Sequence record: PZ386963.1
Direction: 5' to 3' (one strand)
Source of the DNA: a phage
Length of the DNA stretch: 64,000 nt
A program made the translations under genes and the position numbers. The notes beneath the pieces are model-generated. The model searched no databases and was not told the origin of the DNA. It worked only from the letters and a program-made list of their open reading frames with translations. Shown in pieces: positions 4,348-63,778 of the stretch. Positions within the stretch are counted from its first letter, which is position 1; the number at the start of each line of letters is the position of its first letter.

Positions 4348-5447
4348 TATTCATAATCCCTAATAACGAGACCAACAGGGAACTGTAAAGAACCCTTACG
4401 AGTCATCTTCTGGAACTGAACCGTTAAAGGCTTCCCGATAAACTCTTCAGGGTGTTCAGCAAGATACTGTTTCTTCTCGTGTGTAGTTTTCCATGAGACA
4501 TCTACAAAGACGTTAGGAAGAGTCTCTACAACGAACTTGCCATGACCACGTTTATCGGTCTTTACACCAGTCACTTTAAACTCTTCAGTGTGCATCTTCT
4601 TGTGCTTAATCAAGAAGTATGAACGGTGACAACACTCATAGAAGGAGTCTTCAGAGATTGAACGGTACATTGCACCTTCAAACTTAGCTTCAACCCACTT
4701 ATCATGAGCTTCATCAAACTCTTCCCAAGAATTTACACGGATAGTTTGTACAGGAACCACTCTACAGGTATCCCCAAGCTCAACAATAGGTGAACTATCA
4801 ATAACTTCACGACGCTCAGGCCAAGATTTTGAATTGTCACAGATATCATACCAGTAGAATTTAAGAAGGTGACGGTCTGGATTGTCAGCATTCTTAATCA
4901 TGGATACAATATCTTCTAAGTCCCAACCATGAGCATAAATCTCTCCATCAAAGTCTTCAACTTGTGGATGTAATTTAAGCAACAAAAGCAAATCTGGAAT
5001 TAGTTCTGCTGGAACGTTGTAAACAGTATTCTCACGAGAATAAGCCGTGAAGCTAACTGAATCATCATCTCTTGAAATTCTACAACGGACACCATCAAGT
5101 TTTGGTTGAGCATCAGCAGGGAACTTCAGATACTTTGCATGGCTAACCTTTGCAGCATCATGAGCAAGCTGTACACCTACCTTCTCAGTATTCTGTGCAG
5201 ACTCTTTTGTGTAAGCATAACCTTTGCGGTCAACTTGTTTCTTGTACTTAGCAGAAACTTCAAAGAGAGCTTGCTGTTCAGCGTTACGCTCATTCTTTTT
5301 ACCGATGTTTTTAGGCTCTGCTGTGTACTCTTCAAACATCATCTTGCCATTTTCTTTACCATAGGTTGTAATAACTTTGTCACCTACAGCAACACATGAC
5401 CAGACGTTGAAAGAGCCATCTTTATTTTGTTTGTACAGTATTGTCAT
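4347..5447 (-). CDS. ATP-dependent DNA ligase
   Basis: KLDGVRC adenylation motif (KxDG), 366 aa, T7-ligase-like size; RBS GAGGA upstream. Confidence 0.8.
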   Translation of the reverse strand: MTILYKQNKDGSFNVWSCVAVGDKVITTYGKENGKMMFEEYTAEPKNIGKKNERNAEQQALFEVSAKYKKQVDRKGYAYTKESAQNTEKVGVQLAHDAAKVSHAKYLKFPADAQPKLDGVRCRISRDDDSVSFTAYSRENTVYNVPAELIPDLLLLLKLHPQVEDFDGEIYAHGWDLEDIVSMIKNADNPDRHLLKFYWYDICDNSKSWPERREVIDSSPIVELGDTCRVVPVQTIRVNSWEEFDEAHDKWVEAKFEGAMYRSISEDSFYECCHRSYFLIKHKKMHTEEFKVTGVKTDKRGHGKFVVETLPNVFVDVSWKTTHEKKQYLAEHPEEFIGKPLTVQFQKMTRKGSLQFPVGLVIRDYE

Positions 5448-56666: not shown

Positions 56667-58082
56667 ATGAGCGAATTATTTAAACATGCGCACCTTCATG
56701 CAGGTCGAACTGAAAATGGTGCTGTAAACCATACTTCATCAATGTCTGCTCTTGTAGACTTTTACAAAGCTGCTGGTTCAAGCCGTAGCAACGTAGAAAT
56801 CTTACCAGACCTGTTCTATAAAGCTTTGCGTGAGGATGTTGATGTTGCAGTTCGTATTTTACTGCATATGCGAGATGTACGAGAAGGTATGGGTGAGCGT
56901 AAAGCCTTCAGAACTGTTTTGCTTCAAGCAATTGAAGATAAAGTTTTAGAGCCTACACAGGTTCTTCGCATTATGGATAAGATTGCAGAACTTGGTCGTT
57001 TTGATGACTTCAAAATCTTCGCAGGTACTCGTTTCGAGACAGATGCCTTCAAACATTTAGAAGCAGCATTACTAGACCCTGCAACAGCAGGTTTGGCAGC
57101 CAAGTGGTTACCACGAGTCAAACCACGTCACAAACAGTTTGTAAAACGTTTCTGCAAGTTTGCCAACTTGAGTGAGAAAGAGTACCGCACACTGTTGTCT
57201 GCACTATCTGATACAGTTGAGCAAAAAATCTCTGCTAATGAGTTTGGTAAGATTGATTACAGTAAGATTCCTTCACTTGCTGCTGCACGTTACCAAAAGC
57301 TGTTTAACCGCAAAGATGGAGAACGCTACAAAGCTTACATCGAGTCTTTATCAAAGGGTGAGACTAAGATTAATGCTGGTGCTGTTTACCCATACGATGT
57401 GATTAAGTCTGTTAAGTATGGTAATGCAGATGTTGCTAATGAGCAATGGAAAGCACTACCAAACTGGATGGCAGAGGGTGAAAACATTCTATGTATGTCT
57501 GATGTTTCATGTTCAATGTCTTGGGTGAATTTTGGCTCCATTACTGCTCTGGATATTGGTGTATCACTTGCATTGTATGTAGCAGAACGCAATACAGGTT
57601 GCTTTAAAAATGAGTTGATGGTTTATTCAACAAACCCTCACTTCATCGAACTGAGTGGTGATTTACGAAATCGCCATCGTCAGGTGATGCGACACGTTGA
57701 ATATGGTTCAACTAACTTACAAGCAGCTTTTGACCGTATTCTTGAGACAGGTAAAAGAAACAACTTGACTCAGAAAGATATGCCAAGTAAGCTTATCATC
57801 TTCTCCGATATGGAGTTCAATCAGGTTGATGGAGCTAACGGTCGTACAAACTTTGAAGCAATTCAGAGTAAGTACAAAAAAGCTGGATATGAGATGCCAC
57901 AACTGGTATTCTGGTACTTAGCAAACCGTAATGGTACTTGCGAAGTATCTGTTAAGGATAACGGTGTAGCAATGGTATCTGGTTTCTCCCCAGCCACTTT
58001 AAAAGCTCTGCTTGGTGGTGAGAAGTTTGACCCAATCAGCGTAATGCTCAAAGCAGTAATGATTGACCGTTATATCTGGTAA
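56667..58082 (+). CDS. vWA-domain protein with N-terminal helical domain (TROVE/Ro60-like or DUF2828-like architecture)
   Basis: MIDAS-like DVSCSMS (DxSxS) with downstream conserved Thr/Asp positions; 471 aa; directly upstream of tRNA cluster. Confidence 0.5.
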   Translation: MSELFKHAHLHAGRTENGAVNHTSSMSALVDFYKAAGSSRSNVEILPDLFYKALREDVDVAVRILLHMRDVREGMGERKAFRTVLLQAIEDKVLEPTQVLRIMDKIAELGRFDDFKIFAGTRFETDAFKHLEAALLDPATAGLAAKWLPRVKPRHKQFVKRFCKFANLSEKEYRTLLSALSDTVEQKISANEFGKIDYSKIPSLAAARYQKLFNRKDGERYKAYIESLSKGETKINAGAVYPYDVIKSVKYGNADVANEQWKALPNWMAEGENILCMSDVSCSMSWVNFGSITALDIGVSLALYVAERNTGCFKNELMVYSTNPHFIELSGDLRNRHRQVMRHVEYGSTNLQAAFDRILETGKRNNLTQKDMPSKLIIFSDMEFNQVDGANGRTNFEAIQSKYKKAGYEMPQLVFWYLANRNGTCEVSVKDNGVAMVSGFSPATLKALLGGEKFDPISVMLKAVMIDRYIW

Positions 58083-58101
58083 AAAAGTTTTAAAAAGGGT
58101 A

Positions 58102-58130
58102 TTGACAATATGTTTGATACCCTTTAATAT
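58102..58130 (+). promoter_or_regulatory. Sigma70-like promoter flanked by an 8-bp perfect inverted repeat
   Basis: TTGACA-17-TAATAT; AAGGGTAT...ATACCCTT straddles the -35 and spacer. Confidence 0.5.
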
Positions 58131-58192
58131 GTTCTACATAGAAACGAAACGAGAGCTTTTCTAAGATACTGAAAAATATTTTAAAAAAGTTC

Positions 58193-58222
58193 TTGACAAC
58201 CACTAAAAAATAATGTTAAAGT
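58193..58222 (+). promoter_or_regulatory. Sigma70-like promoter ~27 nt upstream of first tRNA
   Basis: TTGACA-18-TAAAGT. Confidence 0.45.
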
Positions 58223-58248: not shown

Positions 58249-58325
58249 CTCTGTTTAGCTCAGCTTGGTAGAGCGTTCCGTTTGGGGCGGTAAGGCCGGA
58301 GGTTCAAGTCCTCCAACAGAGACCA
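58249..58325 (+). tRNA. tRNA-Pro (anticodon TGG), CCA encoded
   Basis: Cloverleaf by eye: acceptor CTCTGTT/AACAGAG, D-arm GCTC/GAGC, loop TTTGGGG, T-loop TTCAAGT. Confidence 0.7.
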
Positions 58326-58332
58326 AATTAAT

Positions 58333-58410
58333 GTTCCAGTAGACAAAATGGTAAAGTCACCACTCTTTCAAAGTGGATATCTGAGGGTTCAAATCCCTTC
58401 TGGAACGCCA
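58333..58410 (+). tRNA. tRNA-Glu (anticodon TTC), CCA encoded
   Basis: Acceptor GTTCCAG/CTGGAAC, anticodon stem CCACT/AGTGG, loop CTTTCAA. Confidence 0.65.
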
Positions 58411-58416
58411 GTTTTG

Positions 58417-58492
58417 ACAGAAGACCAATTACAGCAAACTTAATCTTATTCATCTGAAGGTAAATCGGACAAAGAAGAGATTTGGTCTGGTC
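58417..58492 (+). ncRNA. Conserved inter-tRNA hairpin element, copy 1 (candidate small RNA or processing signal)
   Basis: ACAGAAGACCAATTACAGCAA at 5' end pairs with TTGGTCTGG at 3' end. Confidence 0.35.
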
Positions 58493-58502
58493 ATTAAGAA
58501 TT

Positions 58503-58578
58503 GCGGGTATAGAGAAAGGGCGTCTCACATGTCTCATTAGCATGGTATCGGCAGGTTCGACTCCTGCACCCGCCTCCA
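58503..58578 (+). tRNA. tRNA-Met/Ile2 (anticodon CAT) with unpaired position 1-72
   Basis: D-stem GAGA/TCTC, anticodon stem CATGT/GCATG, loop CTCATTA, T-arm GCAGG/CCTGC. Confidence 0.55.
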
Positions 58579-58583
58579 AATTT

Positions 58584-58650
58584 ACAGAAGACCGTTTACA
58601 GCAATATTTATTAAATTTTTAGCGGAAAAATTGAAAGATACGGTCTGGTA
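58584..58650 (+). ncRNA. Conserved inter-tRNA hairpin element, copy 2
   Basis: ACAGAAGACCGTTTACAGCAA ... ACGGTCTGG. Confidence 0.35.
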
Positions 58651-58661
58651 ATACTAAACAT

Positions 58662-58738
58662 GGTTAGGAAGCACATAAGGTATGTGCGGTCGCCTGTTAA
58701 GCGAATGGCACAGGGTTCGAATCCCTGACTAACCGCCA
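58662..58738 (+). tRNA. tRNA-Asn (anticodon GTT)
   Basis: D-stem GCAC/GTGC, loop CTGTTAA, T-arm CAGGG/CCCTG, 3' end ACTAACC-G-CCA. Confidence 0.65.
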
Positions 58739-58807
58739 AATTTAGGAGAGAAGCGATTGCTCACCGATTTGTAAGGTGCAAGTCCTTAGCCTGAATAGAA
58801 ATTAAAT

Positions 58808-58895
58808 GTGTCGTTATCCCGTAGATGGTAGCGGTGGGGACTGTAAATCCCTTGTCATTGAGACTCGGTAGGTTCGACTCCTACACGGCACACCA
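58808..58895 (+). tRNA. tRNA-Tyr (anticodon GTA), long variable arm
   Basis: Acceptor GTGTCGT/ACGGCAC, loop CTGTAAA, 15-nt variable arm, T-loop TTCGACT. Confidence 0.65.
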
Positions 58896-58900
58896 ATAAA

Positions 58901-58978
58901 GGTTATGTAGTTTAATTTGGTTAAAATACTCCCCTGTCACGGGAGATGATGAGGGTTCAAATCCCTTCGTAACCGCCA
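58901..58978 (+). tRNA. tRNA-Asp (anticodon GTC)
   Basis: Acceptor GGTTATG/CGTAACC, anticodon stem CTCCC/GGGAG, loop CTGTCAC. Confidence 0.65.
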
Positions 58979-59038
58979 ATTTTGAGAGGGCTATTTAGCC
59001 CCTCCCTTAAAGAGTTCTTACGAGTATTCTTTAAAGGA

Positions 59039-59113
59039 GCAGAAGACCAAATACAGCAAGTTACTTAAAATTTCAAGCCAATTTAATTTTGAAAAATTTA
59101 AAACTTGGTCTGG
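59039..59113 (+). ncRNA. Conserved inter-tRNA hairpin element, copy 3
   Basis: CAGAAGACCAAATACAGCAA ... TTGGTCTGG. Confidence 0.35.
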
Positions 59114-59125
59114 CTCAACAAATTT

Positions 59126-59258
59126 ACAGAAGACCGTTTACAGCAAAACTTAAACAATCTATTTCTCGGTAAAGAAAAGGTGAAGGTTCGATTCCTTCAC
59201 TCGGCAGATGTCGAGTTGGTGTAATGGTAGCACTTAAGATGATAAACAACGTTCTGGT
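59126..59258 (+). ncRNA. Conserved element copy 4 containing tRNA-like T-arm and D-arm fragments
   Basis: ACAGAAGACCGTTTACAGCAA ... GAAGGTTCGATTCCTTC ... GTTGGTGTAATGGTAGCAC ... AACGTTCTGG. Confidence 0.3.
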
Positions 59259-59402
59259 AATTATCTTTGTAGATAAGTTATTAAGCTTACCTGTGAGTAT
59301 GCGACCACAAAGGGTGAAAGGGTAAATTCTAGATTTAAACCCAAAAAGGCACATCGCTACAGACCTTAAGCAAGTCTGGGTAGCTTATCTACAAAGATAA
59401 TT
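59257..59402 (+). ncRNA. Candidate structured RNA closed by a 17-bp long-range inverted repeat
   Basis: TTATCTTTGTAGATAAG (59261-59277) is the exact reverse complement of CTTATCTACAAAGATAA (59386-59402), enclosing ~108 nt. Confidence 0.35.
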
Positions 59403-59406
59403 TAAT

Positions 59407-59482
59407 GGAAGTGTAGCAGAATGGTGATGCGGCAGACTTTTAATCTGACAGGCGATGGGTTCGAATCCCTCCACTTCTACCA
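59407..59482 (+). tRNA. tRNA-Lys (anticodon TTT), weak T-stem
   Basis: Acceptor GGAAGTG/CACTTCT, loop CTTTTAA, T-loop TTCGAAT; two T-stem mismatches. Confidence 0.55.
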
Positions 59483-59486
59483 AAAT

Positions 59487-59563
59487 GGTTCAGTCGCAGA
59501 TAAGGTAATGCAAGGGTCTCATAAGCCCTATGAATGTGGGTTCGAATCCCATCTGAACCTCCA
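59487..59563 (+). tRNA. tRNA-Met/Ile2 (anticodon CAT)
   Basis: Acceptor GGTTCAG/CTGAACC, anticodon stem AGGGT/GCCCT, loop CTCATAA. Confidence 0.65.
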
Positions 59564-59565
59564 AT

Positions 59566-59640
59566 TGTGGGTTAGCATAAATGGTAATGCAAACGGCTGA
59601 TAACCGTTAGAAGAGGGTTCGATACCCTCACCTACAACCA
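59566..59640 (+). tRNA. tRNA-Ile (anticodon GAT)
   Basis: Acceptor TGTGGGT/ACCTACA, anticodon stem AACGG/CCGTT, loop CTGATAA. Confidence 0.6.
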
Positions 59641-59655
59641 ATTTCAATAAAGTTG

Positions 59656-59684
59656 TTGACATTGAAATGTGACTACTTTATAGT
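59656..59684 (+). promoter_or_regulatory. Sigma70-like promoter inside the tRNA cluster
   Basis: TTGACA-17-TATAGT; flanked by ATTTCAA/TTGAAAT inverted repeat. Confidence 0.5.
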
Positions 59685-59977
59685 AACTAAAATACTTCAT
59701 AATATGTATAATTCAAACACCAATACATGAGCGTTAGACGTAACACAATGTGGGGAAATTTGTTGTACATATTCTGAATAGTTTTCGTTGCGTAGCGTCT
59801 ATTTTGCAAATTTAAAATAAATGCAAACGACAATGTTTTTCTGGCAGTAGCTTGATAGGCTAAACACCAGTGAGGTCTTCCAATCCCTCATCAAAGAATT
59901 TGGCGTACTCGCCCACGGTATGATTAATAAGGTGGGCATCTTTAAGGGCTTTCTAAGAGAGTCTTTAAAGATAATTA

Positions 59978-60059
59978 CGGGGCGTATCTCAGCGGTCTTC
60001 TAAACCGCCGTTAACCGAGTAAGTGGAGTATGCGGGTTCGAGTCCTGCCGCCTCGACCA
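59978..60059 (+). tRNA. Atypical tRNA-like gene (possible Arg, anticodon TCT); D-arm not resolvable
   Basis: Acceptor CGGGGCG/CGCCTCG, stem-loop GCGGT-CTTCTAA-ACCGC, T-arm GCGGG/CCTGC, CCA encoded. Confidence 0.4.
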
Positions 60060-60202
60060 ATTTAGTTAGCAGATTACTTAGACGACCTAAGCGGGTCTTC
60101 CTGTAGGGAGGTGGTCTGTATCTCATGTTTTCCAGAACATGTAAATAATCTGAGAAGGGGCTTTACAGTGTTGAGATAATACGGTAAGCTTCGAATTATA
60201 GT

Positions 60203-60285
60203 ATGGGACGATGTTAAGACTCTAAGGCATGAGCAACGGCCTCCAAAACCGTTTCAAAGGGGTTCAACTCCTCCGTCCCATGCCA
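60203..60285 (+). tRNA. Atypical tRNA-like gene with Trp anticodon arm (CCA); ~7 extra nt between acceptor and D-arm
   Basis: Perfect acceptor ATGGGAC/GTCCCAT, D-arm CTC/GAG, loop CTCCAAA, T-loop TTCAACT. Confidence 0.45.
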
Positions 60286-60298
60286 AAGTCTTATTATG

Positions 60299-60388
60299 GG
60301 TAGGTAGCGGCTAATGGTAGCCAAACTGTCTTGAAAACAGTTGCCACTGTAGAGATACGGTGAGGGTTCGACTCCTTTACTTACCGCC
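60299..60388 (+). tRNA. tRNA-Ser (anticodon TGA), long variable arm
   Basis: Acceptor GGTAGGT/ACTTACC, anticodon stem ACTGT/ACAGT, loop CTTGAAA, 20-nt variable arm. Confidence 0.65.
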
Positions 60389-60543
60389 TAATAAGATTTT
60401 AAAGCCAAGCTTCATTCGGATGTTGCTTTGGTATCCCTCGTGTATTGTCGTACACACTGATAAAGCACCTAGTAGGTGTCACGGAGAAGAGATAATATCA
60501 AGCTCTCCAAAGGTTCTAGTCACCGGATTAAACAAGACTATGC

Positions 60544-60566
60544 AAAGACCTTTTTAGGTCTTTTTA
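60544..60566 (+). terminator. Rho-independent terminator-like hairpin within tRNA cluster
   Basis: AGACC-TTTTTA-GGTCT followed by TTTTT. Confidence 0.5.
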
Positions 60567-60644
60567 GAGGGCTTCTAAGGTTATTACAGCTTGTTGTGGA
60601 ACCTTGTTGCTTAGGTTCTTAGAAGTTCTCTAAAAAGATTTAAT

Positions 60645-60722
60645 GGGAGATTGATGGTAATTGGTAAACCTACCATCCTTAGAAGTTGGTGTTTGAGGGT
60701 TCGAATCCCTTGTCTCCTACCA
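60645..60722 (+). tRNA. Atypical tRNA (possibly Leu, anticodon TAG; short variable arm)
   Basis: Acceptor GGGAGAT/GTCTCCT with wobble ends, loop CTTAGAA, T-arm GAGGG/CCCTT; D-arm irregular. Confidence 0.45.
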
Positions 60723-60729
60723 AATTAAT

Positions 60730-60805
60730 GCAGGTGTAGCAAAATGGTTATGCGGCTGACTCTTAATCAGTAAGACGACGGGTTCAATTCCCTCCACCTG
60801 TACCA
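60730..60805 (+). tRNA. tRNA-Lys (anticodon CTT)
   Basis: Acceptor GCAGGTG/CACCTGT, D-stem GCA/TGC, anticodon stem GCTGA/TCAGT, loop CTCTTAA. Confidence 0.6.
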
Positions 60806-60811
60806 GACATT

Positions 60812-60887
60812 GGGGTCATAGTTTATATGGTTAAAATTCGAGTTTTGCAAACTTGGGAACTGAGTTCAATTCTCAGTGACTCCACCA
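60812..60887 (+). tRNA. tRNA-Ala (anticodon TGC)
   Basis: Acceptor GGGGTCA/TGACTCC with G3:U70 pair, loop TTTGCAA, T-arm CTGAG/CTCAG. Confidence 0.7.
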
Positions 60888-60893
60888 ATTAGT

Positions 60894-60968
60894 GCATCCA
60901 TAGTTTAAACGGGAAAATTACAGTCTTCCAAACTGAGGTTGAGGGTTCGATTCCCTCTGGATGCTCCA
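60894..60968 (+). tRNA. tRNA-Gly (anticodon TCC)
   Basis: Acceptor GCATCCA/TGGATGC, loop CTTCCAA, T-arm GAGGG/CCCTC. Confidence 0.65.
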
Positions 60969-60974
60969 AACAAT

Positions 60975-61051
60975 GCTGCTTTCGTATAATTGGCTATTAC
61001 ACATCCCTTGTAAGGATGGAGATGCGGGTTCAAGTCCTGTGAGCAGCACCA
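60975..61051 (+). tRNA. tRNA-Thr (anticodon TGT)
   Basis: Acceptor GCTGCTT/GAGCAGC, anticodon stem CATCC/GGATG, loop CTTGTAA. Confidence 0.65.
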
Positions 61052-61146
61052 ATTCAGAGGTCAAGTGAAAGACCGCTGGTGTCAACTGAAGACCGTAACA
61101 AATTCCACGGAGTTGAGTTAGCGGCACAACTTCAGACCTCTTTCAC
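61052..61146 (+). ncRNA. Inter-tRNA spacer with long-range inverted repeat (candidate structured RNA)
   Basis: AGAGGTC (61056-61062) pairs with GACCTCT (61134-61140). Confidence 0.3.
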
Positions 61147-61221
61147 ACTCGCTTAGTTTATATGGTAAAACATCACCCTTACAAGATGAAGAAAAAGGTT
61201 CAAGTCCTTTAGTGAGTACCA
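61147..61221 (+). tRNA. tRNA-Val (anticodon TAC)
   Basis: Acceptor ACTCGCT/AGTGAGT, D-stem GTTT/AAAC, loop CTTACAA, T-arm AAAGG/CCTTT. Confidence 0.6.
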
Positions 61222-61222
61222 T

Positions 61223-61300
61223 GTTCCAGTATCCCAATTGGCAGAGGATGCAAGCTCAAACCTTGTATTAGTGACGGTTCGAATCCGTCTTGGAACACCA
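61223..61300 (+). tRNA. tRNA with anticodon CAA (Leu) but short variable arm
   Basis: Acceptor GTTCCAG/TTGGAAC, anticodon stem GCAAG/CTTGT, loop CTCAAAC, T-arm GACGG/CCGTC. Confidence 0.5.
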
Positions 61301-61305
61301 ATTTT

Positions 61306-61381
61306 GCAGGATTAGTTCAAATGGATAGAGCAACAGTCTACGAAACTGTTAATAGGGGTTCGAATCCCTTATCCTGCGCCA
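61306..61381 (+). tRNA. tRNA-Arg (anticodon ACG)
   Basis: Acceptor GCAGGAT/ATCCTGC, D-arm GTTC/GAGC, anticodon stem ACAGT/ACTGT, loop CTACGAA. Confidence 0.7.
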
Positions 61382-61399
61382 GATAAGCAAGAGGAATTT

Positions 61400-61642
61400 A
61401 TGCAAACATTAACCGTCGTTGAACATGAAAATTCCAATAGTATTGAGTTTGTAAGGGTTCCCACTATAGATACCCACATTTTCTTAAAAGTCGGATGGGA
61501 ATGCGACCCAATAAAAGTAGAAAGATTTATTGGTCATTGCTTTGGTGGAAGACAACTTAAAAGTATCAATTTTGAGACAATGTTACCAGAAAGCTCAGAA
61601 ACAAATAATAATGCTTACCTCCTTACGAGGGTTAGACAATGA
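61400..61642 (+). CDS. Hypothetical protein embedded in tRNA cluster
   Basis: 80 aa behind AAGAGGA RBS. Confidence 0.45.
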   Translation: MQTLTVVEHENSNSIEFVRVPTIDTHIFLKVGWECDPIKVERFIGHCFGGRQLKSINFETMLPESSETNNNAYLLTRVRQ

Positions 61643-62196
61643 GATACTTAAAATATGCTTCATGGATTTTCTTAGCTTTACTAGACCCAATTGCAGCAAT
61701 CCTAGCAGTTATCTTAGCACCTTTCGTAGTTCCATTCTACAGTGAGAAGAAAGGGCATCTACCTTTTGGATTCAGATGGATGGAGACCTATGACAACCCA
61801 ATTGATGGTGATGAAGGTCACGTTAAAAGATGGGCTAAGGTTAGAAAGATTGGTAAGCTGGGTGTCTACATGCAGAGAGTCGGATGGCTCTGGAGAAACA
61901 AAGCTTATAACTTCTCTTACCATGTATTAGGAAGAGATGTAAAAGATGTTACTAAGTGGAAAGGTAATATCAACGTAAGTTCTGACCCTGAAGATAATCA
62001 GACAGGTTATCTCCTAATGTGGAACAACAATGCTTGGGGATTATTCGCTTTTATTCCGTCAATTAAAGTCTTTGGTAAACAGTTTTACTGGAGAATCTAT
62101 GTTGGATGGAAACTAAAAAGTGTTGTCCCAGAAGAAAGAGCATTCTCAAGGGAAAGAGTTATGTTGGCATTCTTTATTCATCCACTGAGAAAGTAA
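61639..62196 (+). CDS. Membrane-anchored hypothetical protein embedded in tRNA cluster
   Basis: 185 aa, hydrophobic N-terminal ~30 aa, Trp-rich; ATGA overlap with previous gene. Confidence 0.45.
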   Translation: MRYLKYASWIFLALLDPIAAILAVILAPFVVPFYSEKKGHLPFGFRWMETYDNPIDGDEGHVKRWAKVRKIGKLGVYMQRVGWLWRNKAYNFSYHVLGRDVKDVTKWKGNINVSSDPEDNQTGYLLMWNNNAWGLFAFIPSIKVFGKQFYWRIYVGWKLKSVVPEERAFSRERVMLAFFIHPLRK

Positions 62197-62204
62197 AGAT
62201 TTAA

Positions 62205-62280
62205 AGGGGATTAGTTTACAAGGTTAAAACCTCGGTCTTTGAAATCGAAGAAGTTGGTTCAATTCCAACATCCCCCGCCA
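62205..62280 (+). tRNA. tRNA-Gln (anticodon TTG), position 1-72 unpaired
   Basis: D-stem GTTT/AAAC, anticodon stem TCGGT/ATCGA, loop CTTTGAA, T-arm GTTGG/CCAAC. Confidence 0.6.
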
Positions 62281-62282
62281 AT

Positions 62283-62361
62283 GCTCCATTACTCCAATTG
62301 GCAGAGAGGCCAGACTTAAAATCTGTGTTATGTATCGGTTCGAATCCGATATGGAGTACCA
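62283..62361 (+). tRNA. tRNA with anticodon TAA (Leu), short variable arm
   Basis: Acceptor GCTCCAT/ATGGAGT, loop CTTAAAA, T-arm ATCGG/CCGAT. Confidence 0.5.
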
Positions 62362-62366
62362 AATTT

Positions 62367-62442
62367 AGCGGTATAGCATAACTGGCAATGCAGCAGTCTC
62401 TGAAGCTGTCCTATTAAGGTTCAAATCCTTATGCCGCTGCCA
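62367..62442 (+). tRNA. tRNA-Gln (anticodon CTG)
   Basis: Acceptor AGCGGTA/TGCCGCT, D-arm GCAT/ATGC, loop CTCTGAA, T-arm TAAGG/CCTTA. Confidence 0.6.
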
Positions 62443-62473
62443 CTTCTAAGGGTTCTTACGAGAGTCCTTAAAT

Positions 62474-62549
62474 GTGGCCTTATCATAAATGGTAATGACC
62501 CATGCTGTGAACATGGTCTATACGGGTTCAAATCCCGTAGGTCACCCCA
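62474..62549 (+). tRNA. tRNA-His (anticodon GTG), discriminator C
   Basis: Acceptor GTGGCCT/AGGTCAC, D-arm TCAT/ATGA, anticodon stem CCATG/CATGG, loop CTGTGAA. Confidence 0.7.
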
Positions 62550-62554
62550 ATTTA

Positions 62555-62631
62555 TAGTCCAAGTAGCTTATATGGTTAAAGCGCGTGTCTGAAAAACATG
62601 AGAAGAGGGTTCAAATCCCACTGGACTACCA
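62555..62631 (+). tRNA. tRNA-Phe (anticodon GAA), irregular acceptor-to-D-arm spacing
   Basis: Acceptor TAGTCCA/TGGACTA, D-stem GCTT/AAGC, loop CTGAAAA, T-loop TTCAAAT. Confidence 0.55.
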
Positions 62632-62647
62632 ATTTCAAAGGTGCTTA

Positions 62648-63382
62648 ATGAAAGAGATGACAGAACAAGGTAAGGAGATTTTTAATCTCTTAAAAACCGG
62701 TAAAGGGTTTTCTAACCCACTTATTACTGGTGCAGCAGTTCTCGGTGGAACCGTAGCTGCCTCTACATCACTTGTAAGCTCTATTAGCTCTGTAACAGAC
62801 CCTACAATGAAGGAGAAGCTTGTTGCTGCTGGACTTACAACAGTCCTTCTAAACAGCTTTACAACAAGCCTGACAAGCACTACAGCAACTACTAAGACCC
62901 TAACAGACTATGGTCAAAAGTCTATTGATGAGTTTTCATCACGTATGCAGGTAGCAAAGGGGTACTCCAATGTTATGGGTGCAGCAGGAGAACAAGTTGG
63001 TTGTACACCATTCAGTGGTATTATGGGTGTTGCTACAGAGTACGGTCAGCAAGCTATTGGCATGATTAACAGCACACTAGACAGTGTTAACGGTGTGTTA
63101 AGTGATTTACAAGACGCTATTGATGAGGGTCTTGATACTGTTTCTGATTTAGCTAATCAGGCTGTTAGTAAGATTAATGAAGGTATCTCAAAGATTACAG
63201 CTTATGCAGATGAAGTTGTGCAGATGATTGAAGAAGAAGCTGCCCTTATTGCAGAGTACCTTAAAACGAATATCAATGGGTTCTTAGCAGGTATCTTACC
63301 AGACTGGTTTGATGATGCTTGTAAAACTGGTGTAATTGACACCATTGCAACACCAGAAATGAAGAGCGCATTACAGAAATAA
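62648..63382 (+). CDS. Ser/Thr-rich hypothetical protein embedded in tRNA cluster
   Basis: ATG at 62648 just after tRNA-Phe; 244 aa with low-complexity S/T segment. Confidence 0.45.
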   Translation: MKEMTEQGKEIFNLLKTGKGFSNPLITGAAVLGGTVAASTSLVSSISSVTDPTMKEKLVAAGLTTVLLNSFTTSLTSTTATTKTLTDYGQKSIDEFSSRMQVAKGYSNVMGAAGEQVGCTPFSGIMGVATEYGQQAIGMINSTLDSVNGVLSDLQDAIDEGLDTVSDLANQAVSKINEGISKITAYADEVVQMIEEEAALIAEYLKTNINGFLAGILPDWFDDACKTGVIDTIATPEMKSALQK

Positions 63383-63383
63383 T

Positions 63384-63476
63384 GGAAGATTAACCCTAAA
63401 AGGTAAGGGAGCAGTTTGCTAAACTGCCAGTAGCTGAGAAATCGGTGTACCAGTTCAAGTCTGGTATCTTCCTCCA
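63384..63476 (+). tRNA. tRNA-Ser (anticodon GCT), long variable arm
   Basis: Acceptor GGAAGAT/ATCTTCC, anticodon stem GCAGT/ACTGC, loop TTGCTAA, T-arm ACCAG/CTGGT. Confidence 0.65.
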
Positions 63477-63480
63477 ATCT

Positions 63481-63556
63481 GAATCCGTGACAGAAATGGA
63501 TATGTGCCTGTCTGCAAAACAGGTTTATAAGGGTTCGAGTCCCTTCGGATTCTCCA
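63481..63556 (+). tRNA. tRNA-Cys (anticodon GCA)
   Basis: Acceptor GAATCCG/CGGATTC, anticodon stem CCTGT/ACAGG, loop CTGCAAA, T-arm AAGGG/CCCTT. Confidence 0.65.
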
Positions 63557-63655: not shown

Positions 63656-63778
63656 AGAGTTATACTTTATAGGAAGACTTATACAGTATGTCTCTGACGT
63701 ACATTGTGGTTTCTCCTTGACGGTCTCTGTGCCGTCTTTTTTAAGGGGAAACAAGATTTATTATTTGGAGAAAACATA

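Follow-up and report, generated by a model that had tools for sequence, protein, structure and literature searches.

Protein-coding genes within the tRNA cluster of a Felix O1-like phage: a candidate lysis-module protein of the DUF7338 family, its putative small partner, and a probable virion-associated protein

Three genes embedded in a cluster of 25 tRNA genes

We analyzed three protein-coding genes, designated open reading frames (ORFs) A, B, and C, that lie among the transfer RNA (tRNA) genes of a phage DNA stretch of 64,000 nucleotides (nt; sequence record PZ386963.1), hereafter referred to as the window. The region 61300–63500 matched approximately 200 Felixounavirus genomes end to end with 95–98% identity, and we assigned the window to Felixounavirus, that is, to a Felix O1-like myophage (Salmonella, Escherichia, Shigella). 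ARAGORN placed 25 tRNA genes in the interval 58249–63556, without exception on the + strand, and the Rfam tRNA matches concurred. The features of the locus are as follows.

58249–63556, + strand: cluster of 25 tRNA genes that hosts ORFs A, B, and C (ARAGORN, Rfam)
59656–59684, + strand: sigma-70-like promoter, TTGACA-17-TATAGT, the best within the cluster (consensus match only)
61306–61381, + strand: tRNA-Arg(acg), its 3′ end 18 nt before the start of ORF A (ARAGORN)
61400–61642, + strand: ORF A, 80 amino acids (aa), soluble, phrog_14202; ATG start, AGAGGA 7 nt upstream
61639–62196, + strand: ORF B, 185 aa, DUF7338; ATGA overlap with ORF A, GAGGG upstream
62205–62631, + strand: five tRNA genes (Gln, Leu, Gln, His, Phe) between ORFs B and C (ARAGORN)
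62648–63382, + strand: ORF C, 244 aa, DUF7217; AAAGGTG upstream
63384–63556, + strand: tRNA-Ser(gct) and tRNA-Cys, from 1 nt past the ORF C stop codon (ARAGORN)
63686–63736, + strand: two terminator-like hairpins 3′ of the last tRNA gene (hairpin scan)

An earlier inspection of the letters (the sequence-only reading) had reported three ORFs between the tRNA genes, each with a good ribosome-binding site, and all three were present with sequences resembling such sites upstream. That of ORF A falls in the trailer of tRNA-Arg(acg). For ORF C, an alternative GTG start at 62585 would give a protein of 265 aa and cross tRNA-Phe; this version was unused in the Felixounavirus records whose annotation was read. 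The description of ORFs A and B as a two-gene operon held, as the 4-nt overlap also occurs in phage Av-05, and so did those of ORF B as membrane-anchored and Trp-rich (one strongly hydrophobic N-terminal segment; 10 Trp, 5.4%) and of ORF C as Ser/Thr-rich (Ser + Thr, 20%). The statement that none of the products has recognizable motifs proved wrong: remote-homology searches and structure prediction, proposed as checks by the same reading, assigned ORF B to Pfam DUF7338 and ORF C to Pfam DUF7217 and provided models of both proteins.

ORFs B and C are equivalent to ORF48 and ORF49 of Felix O1, from which the 80-aa ORF A gene is absent. Among 22 Felix-like loci of IMG/VR, ORF B was intact in all 22 and ORF C was present in 21, with pairwise ratios of nonsynonymous to synonymous substitution rates (dN/dS) of 0.03–0.18 and 0.04–0.13, respectively, and the dN/dS of ORF A was 0.2–0.3 in divergent pairs. 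The concern that the ORFs might not be conserved was answered by this conservation and the low dN/dS, together with the ORF48 and ORF49 transcripts detected in Felix O1 by reverse transcription PCR (RT-PCR) (PMC3185647). ORFs A, B, and C are real, conserved genes under purifying selection. They are already annotated in hundreds of genomes, and ORF B is already named "holin" in some records.

ORF B is a DUF7338 protein and a candidate for the lysis module

ORF B matched Pfam DUF7338 (PF24027) over residues 1–184 with an E-value of 1.6e-62 and 210.9 bits (cut-off, 27). A search with the DUF7338 profile returned 897 representatives at E ≤ 0.001, nearly all of them single-domain proteins of 165–205 aa. 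Alignment of 27 sequences revealed 16 invariant residues, including T50, D52, R86, N87, Y90, R152, and K158, and the motifs TxD...G, WLWRNxxY, and GWK. The AlphaFold2 model of ORF B, with a predicted local distance difference test (pLDDT) score of 93.3, consisted of a long N-terminal helix (residues 2–33) followed by a Trp-rich alpha+beta domain. The hydrophobic N-terminal window had a Kyte-Doolittle value of 2.47 (family mean, 2.17), and ORF B, in the manner of a holin, is a small phage membrane protein with at least one predicted transmembrane helix. The modeled domain fold had no counterpart among solved structures, and the DUF7338 profile returned noise only (E > 0.5) from the PDB sequences.

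Several GenBank records name the DUF7338 protein "holin" from predicted topology alone, and the Center for Phage Technology annotated the ORF B orthologue of phage Mushroom as a class-III holin, likewise by predicted topology. Felix O1 is a classic Salmonella typing and biocontrol phage, and GenBank records conflict on the Felix-like holin; some give ORF48/DUF7338, and at least one also gives the homologue of gp79 described below. Literature searches on the DUF names returned no papers, and no paper in the literature searched reports hole-formation, knock-out, or expression tests of the Felix-like holin candidates.

We propose that ORF B is a membrane protein of the lysis module, acting as the holin or as a close regulator of it, and give this reading slightly better than even odds (a probability of roughly 0.55) from comparative sequence data. 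The narrower claim that ORF B is a holin in the strict sense we give odds of roughly one in three. In the main rival reading, ORF B is an envelope protein of the exclusion type. It would then be envelope-acting cargo, serving in superinfection exclusion, protection from lysis from without, or envelope modification, with ORF A as its partner; we regard this as unlikely.

Genomic contexts of DUF7338 genes

We scanned the neighborhoods of DUF7338 genes in 57 non-Felix loci (designated by L and a number), with a distance limit of 5 kb for tRNA genes. The DUF7338 gene was tRNA-linked in 27 of them, and the remaining 30 had no tRNA gene within 5 kb. In these 30 loci, the DUF7338 gene comes after tail-fiber-sized genes. 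In tRNA-less relatives, it was found zero to two genes upstream of endolysins, which belonged to five different Pfam families in all. The endolysin was of the Phage_lysozyme family with a signal-anchor-type N-terminus in L058 and L067 and, as judged by eye from the sequence, of the same kind in L059. An Amidase_2 endolysin was found in the L072 group, a GH108+PG_binding_3 endolysin followed by an Rz spanin in L092/93, and a Peptidase_M15_4 endolysin followed by an ORF with two transmembrane segments (2-TM ORF), an i-spanin, and a lipoprotein o-spanin in L097. The neighborhood frequently included a small protein that combines a coiled coil with a transmembrane segment at its N-terminus. Linkage of DUF7338 to endolysin or spanin genes was observed in distant relatives and in phage Aeh1; it was absent from the window and from most T4-like phages.

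These contexts bear on both readings. Proximity to endolysins of five Pfam families argues against envelope cargo, which is favored by the finding that every non-tRNA context of DUF7338 lies directly after tail-fiber or tail-fiber-chaperone-sized genes. Cargo would also suit the loci that have no downstream endolysin (L065, L098, and L096) and those in which DUF7338 stands beside a full canonical lysis set (L097, with endolysin, 2-TM ORF, and i-/o-spanin) or, in T4-like phages, beside the T holin.

The context in Aeh1 speaks for lysis. The late tail-fiber operon of this phage comprises gp34, gp35, two gp37-like genes, DUF7338, lysozyme e, and an ORF with a transmembrane segment and a coiled coil, and is followed on the opposite strand by asiA. 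The gene before asiA in JS10 and T4 is the holin gene t. T holin was missing from the whole Aeh1 genome, in that none is annotated and tblastn gave only E > 1; tblastn on the same genome recovered DUF7338 at an E-value of 3e-19. The search on Aeh1 was sensitive enough, since T homologues with 24% identity in T5-like phages were readily found by tblastn. The same search returned no T homologue from a Felix-like genome. DUF7338 thus fills the holin slot beside lysozyme e in an Aeh1 genome without T, which argues against a cargo function. Aeh1 also carries rIII, rI.1, rI.-1, pseT.2/pseT.3, and e.

Promoter architecture was informative for the T4-like relatives. In four Dhakavirus-type loci (L042, L043, L045, and L046, at ~4940–5000), a terminator hairpin is followed by the T4 late promoter TATAAATA at −34 of the DUF7338 gene, and this octamer occurred only two to three times on that strand per 10.5-kb locus. 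In four Pet-CM3-4-like loci, a terminator and then CATAAATA precede the DUF7338 gene. Judged from these elements, DUF7338 is probably expressed late in Dhakavirus-type phages, where a compact terminator-plus-late-promoter insulator separates the gene from the tRNAs. Such a promoter suits a late function such as lysis and again disfavors envelope cargo; the T4 exclusion genes imm and sp are early. Together, these contexts and the Dhakavirus-type promoter agree with the class-III holin annotation of the Mushroom orthologue.

Proposed mode of action of ORF B and points that weigh against it

In the proposed mechanism, ORF B would be anchored in the inner membrane by one transmembrane helix in an N-in/C-out orientation and would carry a folded domain of ~150 aa. 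It would most likely be a holin with a topology like that of the T4 "class III" type and an unrelated fold, which builds up in the membrane and opens it at a set time, allowing a soluble lysozyme encoded elsewhere to reach the cell wall. Alternatively, ORF B would be a close regulator of the membrane-opening step. ORF A would act as its small cytoplasmic partner.

ORF B shares several features with the T4 holin T. Its predicted architecture is that of T, in which the N-terminus is short, a single helix spans the membrane, and the C-terminal domain is large. DUF7338 has a late promoter in Dhakavirus-type phages, as noted above, and the Aeh1 gene is located in the t slot, after the distal tail-fiber genes and before asiA. 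The Felix-like ORF B is unlinked from the endolysin, as is t in T4. ORF B differs from T in lacking sequence similarity to it, and DUF7338 coexists with T in many T4-like phages.

A number of observations weigh against ORF B as the holin. First, ORF B is not homologous to T4 holin T: Phage_holin_T gave no Pfam match at E ≤ 1, and the periplasmic-domain fold of the T4-type holin T was not matched by ORF B. Comparison of the DUF7338 profile with T of JS10 by hhalign gave a probability of 0.4%. Second, DUF7338 coexists with a bona fide T holin in JS10 and RB43-type phages, and small 2-TM holin-like ORFs are found beside it in L097, L092, and L072; DUF7338 is therefore not "the" holin everywhere. 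Third, no endolysin was found downstream of DUF7338 in L065 and L098, and the ORF B gene is not near the endolysin in this phage. The tail-fiber/lysis boundary, moreover, is a well-known site for cargo genes. Fourth, the flanking charges only weakly favor the N-in/C-out orientation for DUF7338, and the basic C-terminal domain has a net charge that averages +6.7 over the family. For a holin, it is unusual to have a globular domain that is strictly conserved and contains invariant polar residues; these invariant residues resemble a specific binding or catalytic site, a resemblance that fits the envelope-cargo reading.

The timing of expression in Felix O1 and the distribution of the gene also fit envelope cargo. 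RT-PCR places ORF48 and ORF49 in the earliest class, with the ORF48 transcript maximal at 5 min, which counts against a late-acting lysis protein; these data are noisy, as the capsid gene is in the same 5-min class (PMC3185647). ORF B is absent in the Erwinia members of the subfamily and is therefore accessory. A receptor-specific blocker is unlikely, since DUF7338 is too conserved across hosts with different receptors. We therefore retain the lysis-module reading for ORF B as the preferred one. The comparative evidence makes DUF7338 a testable holin candidate, with the caution that known holins are encoded alongside it in some phages.

A further point against ORF B is that Felix-like phages encode additional candidates for the holin after the tail fibers, namely a 64-aa hydrophobic ORF and the gp79 homologue. 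The gp79 homologue, in the segment L090 23097–23663 (Salmonella phage DR094) just outside the window start, is 123 aa long and is also labeled "holin". It combines a transmembrane segment at its N-terminus with a coiled coil, is preceded by the 64-aa hydrophobic ORF, and shows a weak similarity (27%) to the ORF after lysozyme e in Aeh1. The possibility that it is an i-spanin was considered and rejected, as no embedded o-spanin reading frame was found.

ORF A is a lineage-restricted companion of ORF B

ORF A had no Pfam, NCBIfam, or PADLOC match; it belongs to phrog_14202, a PHROG without assigned function. Nine of the 22 Felix-like IMG/VR loci and 70 GenBank records carried the gene, in each case as the immediate upstream neighbor of ORF B. 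Only seven close, near-identical clusters of ORF A were recovered among 5.8 billion proteins. Mooglevirus-type phages carry a copy in the same place with 45–48% identity, and Av-05 has a 75-aa ORF that is 29% identical to ORF A (E = 2e-7) and shows the same 4-nt overlap with its B gene. Upstream of the DUF7338 gene in T4-like phages, no ORF A-like ORF was found. From this distribution, ORF A is taken to be a lineage-restricted accessory gene. The 4-nt overlap of A and B suggests translational coupling. The pairing of the two genes survived while ORF A diverged far faster than ORF B (29% versus 81% identity between the window and Av-05), which points to ORF A as a partner or modulator of ORF B.

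Probable co-transcription of the embedded genes with tRNAs

The gaps between the ORFs and the flanking tRNA genes were 18 nt (tRNA-Arg to ORF A), 8 nt (ORF B to tRNA-Gln), 16 nt (tRNA-Phe to ORF C), and 1 nt (ORF C to tRNA-Ser), leaving no room for promoters or terminators at the flanks of the ORFs. The TTGACA-17-TATAGT sequence at 59656–59684 was the sole strong promoter-like site upstream of the ORFs, in a scan that reports consensus matches and in which the number of such sites in the region was not above chance. This sequence is identical to the P45 site reported for Felix O1 (PMC3185647), and it is the probable start of the transcript carrying ORFs A, B, and C. Between 59656 and 63686, no terminator-like hairpin was found except a weak 5-bp one inside ORF C, and the two hairpins at 63686–63736 are likely to mark the end of the tRNA/messenger RNA (mRNA) transcription unit.

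The spacing suggests a model in which one long transcript carries the tRNAs together with ORFs A, B, and C. RNase P and 3′-end processing enzymes would excise the flanking tRNAs and thereby release the A-B and C mRNAs. This arrangement resembles known tRNA-punctuated transcripts, such as those of the mitochondrial punctuation model and the bacterial and T4 co-transcripts cut by RNase P and RNase E, in that the coding regions abut the tRNAs at distances of 1–18 nt. It differs from them in that punctuation is proposed here from spacing alone, and the T4-like DUF7338 genes have their own terminator and promoter. If the mRNAs are released by tRNA excision, the locus would represent a compact, natural case of tRNA-punctuated gene expression in a phage.

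A broader scheme, which we consider speculative and rather unlikely, combines these elements. DUF7338 and its small partner A would form a holin or lysis-timing system of a new fold, replacing the T4-type holin in myoviruses without T (Felix O1-like phages and Aeh1). In phages of the Felix-like and Av-05-like kinds, its mRNA would be excised from a tRNA precursor, and the amount of lysis protein would thereby depend on how the tRNA operon is transcribed and processed.

ORF C is a probable virion-associated protein

ORF C matched Pfam DUF7217 (PF23854) over residues 8–243 with an E-value of 1.6e-86 and 290.4 bits (cut-off, 29). DUF7217 homologues were found in all Ounavirinae, with 44% identity in Erwinia phages, and in Ackermannviridae with 25–30% identity. 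The alignment showed two invariant Cys residues and a conserved C-terminal motif.

Gene order in Erwinia phage Roscha1 (Kolesnikvirus) clarified the position of ORF C. This phage has 26 uninterrupted tRNA genes and no ORF A, ORF B, or gene for the Ro60-like protein described below. Its ORF C homologue starts 17 nt past the last tRNA gene; a small ORF, TerL, and portal come next, and no tRNA is annotated after C. From this order, ORF C would be the first gene of the packaging/head block, and its "embedded" appearance in Felixounavirus is due solely to the tRNA-Ser and tRNA-Cys genes that come after it. ORF C was tRNA-linked only within Ounavirinae; the DUF7217 loci of Ackermannviridae had no annotated tRNA gene, as read from the annotation and not from an ARAGORN rescan.

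Evidence for a place in the virion came from LIMEstone1, a Dickeya phage of Ackermannviridae. Its ORF129 is a full-length DUF7217 protein (Pfam E = 2.6e-93) with 26% identity to ORF C over 239 aa (E = 4e-26). The two proteins are similar in size (242 versus 244 aa), and the alignment takes in both invariant cysteines of ORF C. The LIMEstone1 record describes ORF129 as a "confirmed structural protein" and annotates a late promoter upstream, and the LIMEstone1 paper reports it from purified virions by mass spectrometry (25.03 kDa; two peptides, 18% coverage), as an "unknown structural protein" with a counterpart in ViI according to the authors. The setting of ORF129 differs from that of ORF C, as it adjoins the gp3 tail-completion gene and the annotation of the stretch read includes neither a tRNA gene nor a terminase. 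For Felix O1, Gp49 is named as a 51-kDa virion band and possible sheath protein (PMC3185647).

These data suggest that ORF C is a probable virion-associated protein heading the terminase-portal block. In the proposed model, it would be a helical virion-associated protein encoded by the first gene of the terminase-portal-head block. Three points weigh against this assignment. The structural model, all-helical with three long helices, is of low confidence (pLDDT 56). The predicted mass of ORF49 is 25.5 kDa, as opposed to the 51 kDa of the "Gp49" band (PMC3185647). Gp49 is absent from the whole-phage shotgun table, and gp63 (48.9 kDa) is a better fit to that band (PMC3185647). The 51-kDa "Gp49" is either a numbering slip or a sodium dodecyl sulfate (SDS)-stable dimer of the two-cysteine protein.

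The absence of Gp49 from the shotgun list (PMC3185647) also favors the alternative that ORF C is not a particle component and serves instead as an assembly or membrane factor, such as a scaffold-like protein, a packaging accessory, or a membrane protein. LIMEstone1 ORF129 was identified from two peptides, and DNA ligase and rIIB were likewise "found" in that data set. The N-terminal third of ORF C is rich in Gly, Ala, Ser, and Thr and moderately hydrophobic (best window, 1.62), and some records label the protein "putative membrane protein". Its position immediately upstream of terminase would suit a packaging or assembly factor, as would its weak coiled-coil-type matches to scaffold, tape-measure, and ZorA tail segments. 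We nevertheless consider a non-particle role improbable, given detection in virions in two separate papers (LIMEstone1 ORF129 and the Felix O1 Gp49 band), the late promoter annotated upstream of the LIMEstone1 gene, and the two invariant cysteines and conserved C-terminal motif, which suggest a stable structural role. As candidate homologies, the tape-measure, scaffold, and ZorA coiled-coil matches were rejected as compositional. With virion association of ORF C as the preferred reading, DUF7217 gains a provisional "virion protein" label.

tRNA linkage most likely reflects a plastic region rather than a tRNA-related function

The sequence-only reading had named genes co-transcribed with tRNAs as candidates for tRNA-related functions. 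Co-transcription is plausible from the gaps of 1–18 nt; the functional step was not supported, given the lack of any match to tRNA-enzyme families and the existence of tRNA-less relatives, and the tRNA-function interpretation is not supported beyond probable co-transcription. In this interpretation, the embedded genes would act on tRNAs by modification, processing, or protection from PrrC or RloC, and would be co-transcribed with them for that reason.

The linkage itself is broad. DUF7338 genes adjoin tRNA genes on the same strand in four groups, namely Felixounavirus, Av-05, several T4-like genera, and distant metagenomic contigs, in which they lie just downstream of or inside the tRNA clusters, an arrangement that could favor a function on tRNAs. 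In Escherichia phage Av-05 (Vequintavirinae), the DUF7338 protein is 81% identical to ORF B and is encoded inside a cluster of 14 tRNAs; Pfam searches of the genes around it gave no matches. In JS10 and its relatives, the last tRNA gene ends 233 nt upstream of the DUF7338 gene, and in Pet-CM3-4-like and S13-like phages the gene is embedded in clusters of 18–19 tRNAs. Linkage was likewise found in the Miller/RB43/Miro group and STML-198. In the metagenomic loci L061 and L062 (34% identity), a tRNA gene ends 16–20 nt before the DUF7338 start codon. A tRNA-related function could also draw on the basic domain and unsettled topology of ORF B, on the lack of any assigned function for ORF A, and on the precedent of T4 cef, a tRNA-processing helper gene near the T4 tRNA genes.

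The remaining evidence makes such a function very improbable. ORFs A, B, and C matched no tRNA- or RNA-enzyme family in Pfam, PHROGs, NCBIfam, or PADLOC. A strong transmembrane helix is present in ORF B, and no tRNA was found within the 5-kb limit for half of the DUF7338 relatives scanned. The T4-like DUF7338 genes are insulated from the tRNAs by the terminator and separate late promoter, and the Aeh1 gene lies ~110 kb from the tRNA cluster. ORF C belongs to a provisional virion-protein family that is also present in the Ackermannviridae loci without annotated tRNA, and the Erwinia relatives keep their 26 uninterrupted tRNAs without ORFs A and B.

ORFs A, B, and C have the appearance of ordinary phage genes residing in a tRNA operon prone to recombination, not of tRNA-handling factors. 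The linkage of DUF7338 to tRNAs is real, and it most likely reflects gene exchange in a plastic region, that is, history over function. T4-like phages provide DUF7338 with a late promoter of its own, and in other phages the gene works within lysis cassettes. The same cluster of Felix O1 contains three HNH endonuclease genes (ORF44, ORF45, and ORF47) where the window has empty gaps, which indicates that endonuclease genes were gained and lost there. The large tRNA-free gaps without a long ORF are 58979–59406, 59641–60298, and 60389–60644. One further Felix-like record has an HNH gene in the cluster, and the presence of ORF A, like that of ORF B, varies with lineage.

Homing nucleases that cut tRNA regions, such as T4 SegB, drive co-conversion of neighboring genes. 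By analogy, co-conversion of this kind would account for movement of the A-B module from one tRNA cluster to another. An exchange of ORF B together with common tRNA flanks between Felix-like phages and Av-05 was considered and not borne out, as only scattered tRNA-sized matches and one 87-nt non-tRNA element were shared. The protein genes interspersed with tRNAs in the hyperplastic T4 region (tRNA.2-4, SegB, and cef), and the HNH genes of Felix O1, provide the parallel for this layout. ORFs A, B, and C differ from these genes in that they are not nucleases and show no indication of a cef-like processing role. Genes among phage tRNAs should therefore not be presumed to act on tRNAs.

Neighboring elements and database records

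Just upstream of the tRNA cluster, a gene at 56667–58082 (+ strand) encodes a 471-aa protein with DUF2828, DUF7788, and the PHROG annotation "RNA-binding protein". According to a preprint, the Bas63 counterpart gp130 is Ro60-like and counters Ppl defense, and some neighboring "tRNAs" could be Y RNAs. Between this gene and the first tRNA gene, a terminator-like hairpin (58094–58125) and promoter-like sites (58102–58222) were found.

Two gaps within the cluster may hold additional RNAs. The 95-nt gap between tRNA-Thr and tRNA-Val (61052–61146, + strand) contained no ARAGORN tRNA and matched no Rfam family. Its fold is a long closed stem (−30.7 kcal/mol; z, −2.96), and its core was 82% conserved in the unrelated phage Av-05 (L032 4655–4739), again directly after a tRNA. 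We regard this element as a candidate for a small structured RNA that may partner the Ro60-like protein. In the 658-nt gap, the segment 59583–60059 (+ strand) gave weak matches to Rfam transfer-messenger RNA (tmRNA) families, below the gathering score; the Mushroom paper states that Felix O1 encodes a tmRNA in this region.

Annotation oddities were encountered in four GenBank records (GU169904.1, PV390658.1, NC_041923.1, and KM236237.1). The record of "Staphylococcus phage SA1" contains Felix-like DNA with 97.9% identity and is probably chimeric or contaminated. vB_EcoM_P54 is filed as Tequatrovirus; its stretch is Felix-like, 95.6% identical, and has the same gene order. For Mushroom, the annotated strand of the tRNAs is opposite to that implied by ARAGORN for the orthologous region of the window, and the tRNA-Met of Miller is annotated on the opposite strand to that given by ARAGORN at the same position in related IMG/VR loci.

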